This document shows positions 52,801 to 55,800 of a DNA stretch of 64,000 bases, one piece after another. Origin of the DNA: Escherichia coli. Lineage in GTDB: Bacteria > Pseudomonadota > Gammaproteobacteria > Enterobacterales > Enterobacteriaceae. The stretch lies in the NCBI RefSeq assembly GCF_003334355.1, contig NZ_QOWP01000008.1; one strand, 5' to 3'. Made by a program: the position numbers. Each line of letters starts with the position of its first letter. Position 1 is the first letter of the stretch.

Positions 52801-55800
52801 GCGGGGTAATACGGAGATATCATCATGGGCAAATTAGGTGAAAACGTTCCGCTTCTTATCGATAAAGCCGTAGATTTCATGGCATCAAGCCAGGCGTTCC
52901 GGGAGTATCTGAAAAAACTTCCTCCCCGTAACGCGATTCCGTCCGGAATACCCGATGAAAGCGTGCCGTTATATCTACAACGTCTGGAGTATTATCGTCG
53001 GCTTTATCGGCCGAAGCAGGTAGAGGGGCAGTAAGCAGACGTTGCTTACTTTTGAAAGGCTTTTTTTAAGCTGATTCTGGAAATCAGCTCAGTCAGTGAA
53101 AGGACCATTGTTGATCGCACAGCCTGTTGATAGCGCTGAATTTGCATTGCATACAAACTGGAGTCTGCTGGTTCAAACTGTGGCGGCGGTGGTAACGCCG
53201 CCACGCAGTGCAGTTCACCAAAGGGTCCAAGGATCTCGTCGTCGGTAAAGGCGTACTCGTTGCCGTCGTGATTTAGTTCTTCACGCAATGCCATCAGCAG
53301 CTCCGCATCTTCGTATTCCTGGCGGTTAATGACGCCCAACCCGTAAATGAGTTTTAAACGCACAGAAAGATCGCCCAGCGGACCGTCGCCGTCGAGTAAC
53401 GGTTCTACAGCATACTTCACCGCGTAATCGTCTTTGCGGAATACCTGAAGCACCAGAAGATTTACCGCCTCGGTCAAAAGCTCGACGGCGGTGATCAGAA
53501 AGCTTCGCACGGTTTTGCCAGCATTCAGACGCTCAAGCACACGGTTTTCAAAGGCCTGGGTTTGTTCCATTGTTGCCTGCATATCTGACAATCTGTTATT
53601 CGGGCGCAGGGTGTCCTGCGCCTGGTCCACCATTATTGCATTGCTTTATAAGCGGTTACCGCCTCGGATACAACCTCGCTGTTGGCATCAAGACCGGAAA
53701 TCTGTGCCAGCGCCGCCTGCGGACCTTTGTCAGCGATCAGTGCTGCCAGTTCCTGAGCCTGCGGATCATCTTCACTGCGGAAGTGCATTGCACCAGCAAT
53801 CCCCTGAATCAGATTCTTGTGCGGAAGGCTGTATTCCAGCGTACCGAGCAGTGGCTTGATCAGACGGTCGCCAGCACTCAGTTTACGCAGCGGCTGACGG
53901 CCTACGCGCTCTACATCATCTTTCAGATACGGGTTCTCAAAACGACCGAGGATTTTCTGGATGTACGCCGCATGTTTGTCTGCGTCAAAGCCGTAGCGCT
54001 TGATCAGTACCGCACCACTTTCTTCCATCGCACCTTTTACCACCGCGCGGATTTTCTCGTCGAGAATAGCGTCACGAATGGTCTGATGACCGGCCAGTTT
54101 TCCGAGGTACGCGGTTATAGCATGACCCGTGTTCAGGGTGAAGAGTTTACGTTCGACAAATGCCATCAGGTTGTCGGTTAACTCCATGCCTGGGATGTTC
54201 GGCAGTGCGCCTTTGAACTGCGTTTTATCGACAATCCATTCGCTGAAAGTTTCTACCGTCACTTCCAGCGGATCGTTAGTTGCCGAAGCCGAAGGCGGTA
54301 CGATGCGGTCAACGGCGGAATCGACAAAGCCAACGTGTTCTTCTACCCACGCTTTGGCGTCTTCTGGTAGGGCGTTCATCACATGACCTTTCAGCTGCGT
54401 GGTACCGCGTACCATGTTTTCACAGGCGATGATGTTCAGCGGGGATTCATTACCTTGTTCTTTACGTTTCACCAGCCCTTTGGCGATAGCCGGAGCAATA
54501 CGTTCCAGCACAACCGGGCCAACGGCGGTAGTGACTAAATCGACCTGAGCAATCAGATCAACGACATCATCACCAATGCTGCTGACAGCATCGACGCCGG
54601 AAACGGTATCTACCTGCTCGGTTTCACCAACCACATGAACCTGATAGCTATGACGGGCATTCAGGGCATCAAGTACCACCTGATTGACATCGGCAAACGT
54701 CAGTTGGATACCCGCGTCTGCCAGCAGTTTACCGATAAAGCCACGACCGATATTACCTGCGCCAAAATGTAATGCTTTCATAGTATTAACCTTCATCAAT
54801 GTTTTTACCCGAGAGGGCTGGGGTGAGGCTTTTCCCTCACCCAAACCCTCTCCGTGAGGAGAGGGGCAGCGCCGGATGCGGCGTAAGCGCCTTATCCGGC
54901 CTACAAGAACGTGCAAATTCAACAAATCGTGATGCATCCTGTAGGCCTGATAAGCGTAGCGCATCAGGCAATTAACCCCACCTTCTCCATGTGGAGAGGG
55001 TGGGATTGGATTACTTACGACCTGCCAACAGTTCCAGCACTTCATCCACGCTGGTGGTGTGTGCCAGACGCTCGATGACGGACTCATCATCCAGTGCATT
55101 GGTCAGGCTGGTGATAACCTGAATGTGCTCGTTGTTACGGGCTGCAATACCAATCACCAGACGGGCAATGTCATCTTCTTCTTCACCGAAGCGCACGCCT
55201 TCCGGGTACTGGCAGAACACCACGCCCGTTTTCAGTACGCGATCTTTCGCTTCAACCGTACCGTGTGGCACCGCGATAGACTCACCCAGATAAGTCGGGG
55301 TCAGTTTTTCACGATCCAGCATCGCCTGAACGTATTCCGGCTCAACGTAACCGCCTTTCACCAGCTGCTCGCCAGCAAAACGAATCGCTTCTTCTTTGGT
55401 TGCTGCTTTGCGACCGAGGAAGATGTTCTCCGCGCCCAGTTTGAACAGGTTAGCACTGGAATCGTCAAAGCTGTCTTTCAGACTGTCTTTCACTTTCACT
55501 TCGTTTTCAGTATGGCGCTGGGCAGCAACCAGACGTTCGGTTAGGCTGGTGTACAGGCCGCTGTCGAGGAAGTTGGTCAGCGAAATATGCTGCGCCTGCG
55601 GAACCTGGCGCATAGCGCGTTCGGTCAGGTCACGGTGAGTGATGACGAGGTCCACATCTGGCGGCAGGTTGTTGATCGCGCTGTTAGTGACCGAAATCTG
55701 TGACAGACCTGCATCCTGAATTTTCTTACGCAGCACGCCTGCGCCCATCGCACTGGAACCCATACCGGCGTCACAGGCAACGATGATTTTACGTACGTGG

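Follow-up and report, generated by a model that had tools for sequence, protein, structure and literature searches.

The spacer between mtlA and mtlD in a 64,000-nucleotide stretch of Escherichia coli DNA (contig NZ_QOWP01000008.1 of assembly GCF_003334355.1; this whole stretch is called the window below) is a mosaic of two known enterobacterial intergenic repeat classes with very different histories. One is a palindrome of the BoxC type which, to judge from its orthologues, has been in place since before Escherichia, Salmonella, Klebsiella, Enterobacter and Cronobacter split, and the other is a cluster of REP elements, which the E. coli lineage would have gained between this palindrome and the mtlA stop codon. 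According to the reading we prefer, and to which we would assign a probability of roughly 60%, the hairpins of this mosaic act as a passive RNA barrier or attenuator within mtlADR. Catalogues of REP/BIME and BoxC elements in E. coli go back to the 1980s and 1990s, and their general properties are published; the repeat mosaic is in itself ordinary, with only known kinds present. A position-fixed and strongly conserved BoxC-type copy before mtlD across the Enterobacteriaceae appears, within the literature searched, to be unreported.

The list of open reading frames and the RefSeq annotation of identical DNA place the mtlA stop codon (TAA) at 55013-55011 and the spacer at 54782-55010 (229 bp), exactly where the original prediction had put it. 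From the mtlA stop to the mtlD start, it consists of a GC hairpin, a Z1 REP, a linker, a Y REP, the five-block palindrome and a leader:

55011-56924, minus strand: mtlA, coding sequence of the PTS mannitol transporter IICBA (open reading frame list and RefSeq annotation of identical DNA)
54974-55007, minus strand: second GC hairpin, CCCACCCUCUCCACAUGGAGAAGGUGGG in mRNA sense (repeat-family analysis, fold, alleles, other genera)
54941-54969, minus strand: Z1-type REP, GCCTGATGCGCTACGCTTATCAGGCCTAC on the minus strand (consensus match, repeat families)
54905-54940, no strand assigned: inter-REP linker of 36 nt in the BIME-1 'L' position, with an IHF-like site inside
54871-54904, plus strand: Y-type REP, GCCGGATGCGGCGTAAGCGCCTTATCCGGCCTAC (consensus match; weak match to Rfam naRNA4)
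54811-54865, minus strand: BoxC/PIT/TM-type five-block palindrome (repeat families, alignment, relaxed-consensus match)
54782-54810, minus strand: mtlD leader, GGGUAAAAACAUUGAUGAAGGUUAAUACU, 29 nt (A/U-rich, with the ribosome-binding motif GAAGG)
53633-54781, minus strand: mtlD, coding sequence of mannitol-1-phosphate 5-dehydrogenase (open reading frame list and RefSeq annotation of identical DNA)

The two inverted REP cores of the original prediction were recovered as the Y and Z1 units listed above, and the GC-rich palindromes said to bracket them lie at 54846-54865 (CCCTCTCCGTGAGGAGAGGG) and 54981-55004 (CCTTCTCCATGTGGAGAGGGTGGG), giving a spacer with two inverted REPs and two CCCTCTCC/GGAGAGGG hairpins. 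The hairpin pattern CCCTCTCCNNNNGGAGAGGG, allowing up to 3 mismatches, matched three times in the 64 kb (0.10 expected), with two of the three matches in the mtl spacer. Folding of the transcribed minus strand led to a predicted energy of -115.6 kcal/mol compared to -76.2 ± 4.5 kcal/mol for shuffled sequences (z = -8.8; 0 of 200 shuffles as good). No intrinsic-terminator-like site, defined as a GC hairpin followed by a U-tract, was found in 54500-55300 and no promoter-like site in the spacer; an intrinsic terminator after mtlA and an internal mtlD promoter were both rejected for this reason. At gathering score no Rfam family matches the spacer, and the sub-threshold matches are mostly noise; the one on the Y REP is to the REP-derived naRNA4 (38 bits). 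Compared to K-12, a single base differs in the spacer (T to C at 54928).

In mRNA sense the palindrome reads C1 (CCCUCUCC), UCAC, G1 (GGAGAGGG), UUU, G2 (GGGUGAGG), GAAAAG, C2 (CCUCACCC), CAG and C1' (CCCUCUC). G1 can pair either with C1, which results in a short hairpin, or with C1', which lengthens the G2:C2 pairing to a hairpin of 18 pairs. The order C1-G1-G2-C2-C1' corresponds to one full BoxC unit followed by an inverted unit truncated after C1', in an intergenic position. As judged by alignment, the GC-rich parts of the spacer belong to the published family named BoxC and later PIT elements or the TM_ECO triplex motif (Bergler 1992; Hoyne 2000; Petrillo 2008, PMC2267715; Holder et al. 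2015, PMC4666352), whose K-12 copies have the form CCCTCNCCC, loop, GGGNGAGGG, N3, GGGNGAGGG (PMC2267715 supplement; PMC4666352 Table 1). The strict consensus (CCCTCNCCC N3-6 GGGNGAGGG N3 GGGNGAGGG) gave no match in the 64-kb window, as the blocks of the E. coli mtl copy comprise 8 nt instead of 9; relaxed to 8-nt blocks, the consensus matched once, at 54835-54865 on the minus strand. Its strict form is matched by the orthologues from Klebsiella, Enterobacter and Cedecea and by the pair of copies in the lldD-trmL spacer of K-12, TM_ECO 17 and 18, with which the mtl element aligns at scores of 46 and 32, respectively. The E. coli mtl copy is in neither of the two published K-12 lists (PMC2267715, PMC4666352). 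It shares with the family the block design CCCTCNCC(C), loop, GG(G)NGAGGG, N3, GGGNGAGGG, the intergenic location and an inverted-pair architecture, the latter as at five K-12 loci. Unlike the published copies, it has 8-nt blocks in E. coli, a second loop (TTT) of neither type A (TTA) nor type B (CCG), a second unit that stops after C1', and a position fixed across genera, whereas the published loci are hypervariable. Indeed, BoxC loci have been described as unstable or variable, with copies that are near-identical genome-wide and a motif that occurs also in distant phyla (Holder et al. 2015, PMC4666352).

Our own scan of contigs with CCCTCACCCNNNCCCTCTCC detected, among the matches listed, several copies each in Archangium (Myxococcota), Candidatus Contendobacter, Afipia and one metagenome-assembled genome (JANYBJ01), where the repeated unit is CCCTCACCC-N3-CCCTCTCC-loop-GGAGAGGG. 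In JANYBJ01 this unit forms the middle of an interspersed repeat roughly 105 nt long, the flanks of which are conserved as well, and this longer unit may point to a mobile carrier.

The palindrome before mtlD is found in 5405 of 5426 E. coli genomes, in 4831 at an identity of at least 99%; BLAST with the 63-nt BoxC-type element returned the orthologous locus alone, the other family copies being too short or too diverged for the E-value limit. Beyond Escherichia, orthologous spacers with all five blocks in unchanged order and orientation, the last block about 29-30 nt before the mtlD ATG, were identified in Klebsiella, Enterobacter, Salmonella, Citrobacter, Cronobacter, Siccibacter, Phytobacter, Cedecea and Superficieibacter, in a partial sequence from Buttiauxella and in some 50 distinct metagenome sequences, so that ten or more genera are covered. 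From G1 to the ATG the E. coli sequence is 96% identical to that of Salmonella, 95% to Klebsiella and 91% to Enterobacter, and the third codon positions of mtlD in these comparisons are 57-64% identical. The conserved stretch includes the loop GAAAAG, which is not specific to the family, the linker CAG and the adjacent leader, which is predicted to be single-stranded or weakly paired and is nearly invariant from Escherichia to Klebsiella. It extends from the palindrome into the coding region up to +32, as the first 32 nt of mtlD (54750-54781) are nearly invariant among 12 sequences from different genera or lineages, with only three synonymous differences in the 5' end of the gene (a purine at position 9, pyrimidines at positions 21 and 33). 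What stands between the mtlA stop and the palindrome varies from genus to genus: E. coli has the BIME, Salmonella and probably also Phytobacter an ERIC-like element, Citrobacter a REP, Cedecea a further canonical BoxC, and Cronobacter and Siccibacter have small hairpins of their own. BoxC blocks before mtlD are missing from one enterobacterial lineage (86% identity in MtlD), which carries an unrelated hairpin, GAAGCATTAC-TCCTCA-GTGATGCTTC, at the equivalent position; the hairpin as such, instead of the BoxC sequence, could be what is kept there.

For the aligned spacers RNAalifold predicts the long hairpin G1G2:C2C1'. Its pairing holds in 93.4% of the cells among 43 distinct sequences, compared to 33-57% with slid partners, and four pairs show double-sided changes, a number reached by 1 of 500 shuffles; the covariation score was reached by 0 of 500. 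Compensatory changes were detected in Cronobacter, from GGGUGAGGG/CCCUCACCC to GGGAAAGGG/CCCUUUCCC, and in Siccibacter, where the linkers UUU/CAG became CCA/UGG.

The second component of the mosaic has the architecture of a BIME-1 (RIP/RIB), namely a Y REP, a 36-nt linker and a Z1 REP in inverted orientation. Both REPs match the palindromic-unit consensus GCC(G/T)GATGCG...CTTATC(A/C)GGCCTAC, and their typing as Y, Z1 or Z2 follows the Gilson/Bachellier consensus sequences. The REP tail TTATCMGGCCTAC occurs at two places in the window, both in these REPs (0.07 expected), and for two queries that contain the REPs the median number of matching places in each of the 5426 E. coli genomes was 18 and 36. 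The linker contains an IHF-like site, ATTCAACAAATCG at 54917-54929, with two mismatches to WATCAANNNNTTR; the K-12 form, ATTCAACAAATTG, has one, as the base exchange at 54928 falls into the TTR part of the motif (ATTG in K-12, ATCG in the window). Sites with one mismatch are no rarer than expected by chance, and IHF binding is uncertain due to these mismatches. As in other BIME-1 units, the inverted Y and Z1 units with their IHF-like linker stand at the 3' end of a gene; the mtl unit differs in its imperfect IHF motif, in its location inside an operon instead of at the end of one, in the duplicated BoxC hairpins at its flanks, and in having BIME-2 arrays as alleles of the same site. The second of these flanking hairpins, CCCACCCUCUCC-ACAU-GGAGAAGGUGGG in mRNA sense (55007-54974), begins 7 nt past the mtlA stop and repeats, in direct orientation and with some divergence (86% identity over 21 nt), the hairpin at the end of the BoxC-type element. 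It is missing from the shortest E. coli allele and from the other genera.

Among E. coli genomes the spacer measures 94, 229, 318 or 520 bp, to which metagenome contigs add lengths of 267 and 419 bp. The tandem Y/Z2 alternation of a BIME-2 is not found in the window, and is found in the 318-bp and 520-bp alleles of other strains; the longer alleles are arrays in which Y, S, Z2 and s are repeated and which close with Y, L and Z1. The 94-bp allele contains the single BoxC-type element alone. It corresponds to the 229-bp allele without the 135 bp that separate the two hairpin copies, which form 21-nt direct repeats at a spacing of 135. From evenly spaced rows down the match ranking of E. coli genomes we estimate shares of about 64% for the 229-bp type, about 18% for BIME-2 types (including ST131) and about 15% for the 94-bp type (including O157:H7). 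The 94-bp allele could also be the original form in E. coli, since it resembles the spacers of other genera. Yet in a divergent Escherichia sequence, the MtlD of which is 94% identical, a REP array already occupies this junction; the second copy of the hairpin has diverged; and both loops, TCAC and ACAT, are found among the 94-bp alleles. For these three reasons an early insertion that was then lost repeatedly, by recombination between the direct repeats, seems more likely. A REP cluster that grows to BIME-2 arrays and is lost by recombination between the hairpin copies would also explain the coexistence of the four lengths.

How could such a mosaic act on the operon? On the mtlADR transcript the elements would fold into a row of stable hairpins without U-tract, serving as passive punctuation. 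The hairpins would block 3'-to-5' exonucleases and thereby stabilise the mtlA segment, and the A/U-rich leader just downstream is a plausible entry region for RNase E or Rho, with the combined effect of less mtlD-mtlR output relative to mtlA. In this role the conserved BoxC-type hairpin would be the component under selection, with the BIME as a variable modifier. A REP between malE and malF reportedly protects upstream mRNA from 3' exonucleases (work of Newbury and colleagues from 1987), and termination efficiency is said to be reduced at stop codons that have a stable hairpin no more than 15 nt away (Liang and colleagues, 2015). Like the known intercistronic REP stabilisers and attenuators, the mtl spacer has stable hairpins without U-tract between two genes of an operon, the first of them 7 nt past the mtlA stop; unlike in these systems, the hairpin nearest to the stop is derived from BoxC and not from a REP, and the mtl case is known here from sequence. 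Rho-dependent attenuation at BIMEs has been described by Espeli et al. (2001), as cited in PMC2817692. The processing or attenuation site that the original prediction assumed inside the operon would be in keeping with this and with the row of hairpins. A lowered mtlD-mtlR output would fit the findings that constitutive MtlD expression retards growth and that the copy number of MtlR is thought to be very low (PMC5320558).

Several points weigh against an attenuating barrier. A literature search found no transcript, decay, processing or protein-ratio data for the mtlA-mtlD spacer, and earlier tests of PIT/BoxC elements had no promoter, terminator or RNA-polymerase effect according to the citation of that work by Holder et al. 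(PMC4666352). The BIME is not essential, as about 15% of genomes lack it, and the IHF-like site is degenerate in the sequence of the window. The element varies so little that the covariation, with 7 cells in 4 pairs, is thin; compensatory change in a DNA palindrome is no proof of a role at the RNA level, and it does not tell RNA pairing from upkeep of the palindrome in the DNA. Moreover, BoxC copies are near-identical genome-wide, and part of the conservation may therefore reflect a force acting on the whole family and not selection specific to mtl.

An alternative is that the spacer is neutral or selfish DNA only, a permissive landing site for REP/BIME, ERIC and BoxC whose hairpins have no selected role in mtl, and whose apparent conservation reflects family homogeneity or a low local deletion rate. 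We consider this unlikely, but it deserves to be taken seriously: the BIME is dispensable and changes in copy number, the same slot is occupied by different repeat families in different genera (ERIC in Salmonella, REP in Citrobacter, BoxC in Cedecea), BoxC copies are nearly identical throughout genomes and reach into distant phyla, and the experiments summarised by Holder et al. are reported there as giving no expression effect of PIT elements. Mere tolerance of repeats, however, would not account for a position, orientation and distance to the ATG that stay the same in some 50 different sequences of 10 or more genera, nor for an identity of 91-96%, extending over the GAAAAG loop, the CAG linker and the leader, against about 60% at synonymous sites. 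The compensatory changes in Cronobacter and Siccibacter likewise speak against it, as does the control BoxC locus between lldD and trmL, where the elements have been lost and rearranged even within E. coli.

The two partners of G1 suggest a more active device, a bistable riboregulator in which C1:G1 plus G2:C2 competes with the long G1G2:C2C1' hairpin to set mtlD-mtlR expression, with the switch thrown when the end of mtlA is translated or through a small RNA or a protein, such as one of the MtlR-HPr pathway (the nucleic-acid target of which is unknown). G1 has kept its upstream partner C1 in every one of 10 genera, as assessed by constrained folding (the MAFFT alignment leaves C1 out of register), so that both partners are retained throughout, and the two exclusive folds lie within about 1.5 kcal/mol of each other in 6 of 10 taxa. 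The conserved block from the palindrome to +32 of mtlD would also suit a regulator, MtlR has no demonstrated DNA operator (PMC5320558), and no Rfam family covers the element. On the other hand, neither fold sequesters the mtlD ribosome-binding site, and one of the two is favoured by 4.5-7 kcal/mol in Cronobacter, Siccibacter and Superficieibacter. The C-G-G block design is inherently bistable and bistability is therefore expected of every BoxC copy, genetic data put the action of MtlR at the mtl promoter region (PMC5320558), and no ligand, small RNA or protein candidate emerged from the sequence. We thus regard such a switch as very doubtful. Hardly better placed, and still quite improbable, is the broader claim that the palindrome is a conserved bistable cis-regulatory element of the Enterobacteriaceae that sets mtlD-mtlR against mtlA output, which would make it the first BoxC/PIT copy to have a function tied to its locus and perhaps a nucleic-acid target in MtlR-HPr control.

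Alternatively, the elements might work as DNA, with the BIME-1 binding IHF and the G and C blocks of BoxC forming an intrastrand triplex or a G-quadruplex, and with a role in nucleoid organisation, supercoiling, replication or as a rearrangement hotspot instead of in RNA. IHF binding by BIME-1, gyrase binding by BIME-2 and Rho-dependent attenuation are the published roles of REP/BIME elements (PMC2817692), and BoxC sequences were found to form triplexes and quadruplexes in vitro and to be associated with variable loci (PMC4666352; PMC5100583). The strong length polymorphism of the mtl spacer and the insertion sequences located in BoxC hairpins at other loci are also in line with this. It is nevertheless a poor fit, and we hold it to be highly improbable: with its 8-nt blocks the E. 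coli mtl copy does not conform to the triplex consensus as published, an in vivo footprint in Holder et al. showed no protection (PMC4666352), the IHF-like site in the window has two mismatches, and the fixed distance to the mtlD start together with the conserved leader would be left unexplained.

The original prediction had further compared the mtl spacer with an IS50-end-like palindrome at 41.8 kb, in the lldD-trmL spacer, and the CCCTC.../...GAGGG arms it described are indeed present on both sides:

41816-41835, plus strand: left BoxC remnant, CCCCTCACCCCGGCCTCCCC, in the lldD-trmL spacer (full copy TM_ECO no. 18 in K-12)
41836-41870, no strand assigned: 35-bp palindrome, ISEc13 deletion scar composed of the left-end sequence CTGTCTCTT and the right-end sequence GATCAGGAGATCTGATCAAGAGACAG
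41871-41901, plus strand: right BoxC remnant, CTCCCTGAGGGAGAGGGTTAGGGGGAGGGGG, in the lldD-trmL spacer (TM_ECO no. 17 in K-12)

In Smith-Waterman comparison these arms are the best non-self match of the mtl GC element in the window, with scores of 33 and 25 compared to a background with a mean of 13.3 (standard deviation 2.2) and a next-best score of 21, which also is its maximum; the alignment that was to decide on their similarity thus turned out significant. In K-12 the lldD-trmL spacer carries two full inverted BoxC units (TM_ECO 17 and 18 in Holder et al., eco:16 and eco:17 in Petrillo 2008), and the allele in the window differs from it. The resemblance to IS50 ends could be traced to ISEc13, a member of the IS4 family with IS50-like ends, which starts with CTGTCTCTTATACAC and ends with GTCTCTTGATCAGGAGATCTGATCAAGAGACAG and GAAGTCTCTTGATCAGGAGATCTGATCAAGAGACAG: the 35-mer is identical to the first 9 nt of the left end fused, across the common GTCTCTT, to the last 26 nt of the right end. 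By this exact match the 35-bp palindrome is a deletion scar of ISEc13 and lies outside the BoxC family. Unlike ISEc13 itself, it has neither transposase nor target duplication. The deletion would have removed about 1515 bp, and with no 9-bp target duplication left and about 85 bp of the K-12 spacer missing, adjacent sequence must have been lost too. The scar allele occurs in 797 of the 5426 E. coli genomes and is absent from K-12; an intact ISEc13 at this site, the expected intermediate, was searched for in the E. coli genomes and none was found. Accordingly, one repeat family is present at both loci as far as the arms are concerned, namely BoxC/PIT/TM_ECO, and its proposed division into forms with and without a 35-bp core is wrong. 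A single composite family whose GC-rich arms bracket an optional 35-bp core has next to no probability left, since beyond the related arms its core is a scar missing in K-12 and most genomes, the supposed core at mtl is a REP pair, and BoxC copies normally contain neither.

Within E. coli and between genera the BoxC pair at lldD-trmL is lost, truncated or interrupted, in spacers of 39-1585 nt. As this control pair is unstable, in agreement with what is published for BoxC loci, the mtl copy is atypical of its family. At the same locus, a hairpin, CTGCCCCC-N7-GGGGGCAG at 41758-41781, stands directly before the trmL start codon and takes in the purine-rich ribosome-binding stretch; it is conserved in all lldD-trmL spacers obtained from other genera, including those in which the remaining sequence has been replaced. 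ISEc13 was observed inside the loop of a BoxC hairpin between aaeR and tldD in E2348/69 (duplication AACCCCAG), inside the loop of a terminator-like hairpin between yccJ and agp (duplication GCTTCACGC) and in a BoxC-like sequence on a plasmid, and another insertion sequence splits a BoxC hairpin in a lldD-trmL spacer from outside E. coli. These locations suggest a target preference of ISEc13 for hairpin loops, which would qualify the published claim that BoxC is not associated with mobile elements.

For about 30 years BoxC/PIT/TM elements have had no demonstrated function and have been regarded as markers of unstable loci. The mtl copy has stayed before one gene in ten or more genera, with stronger conservation than at synonymous sites, and offers itself for a test of BoxC function; the one-site series of alleles with 94, 229, 318 and 520 bp represents a ready-made experiment on the effect of BIMEs on the flanking genes of an operon.

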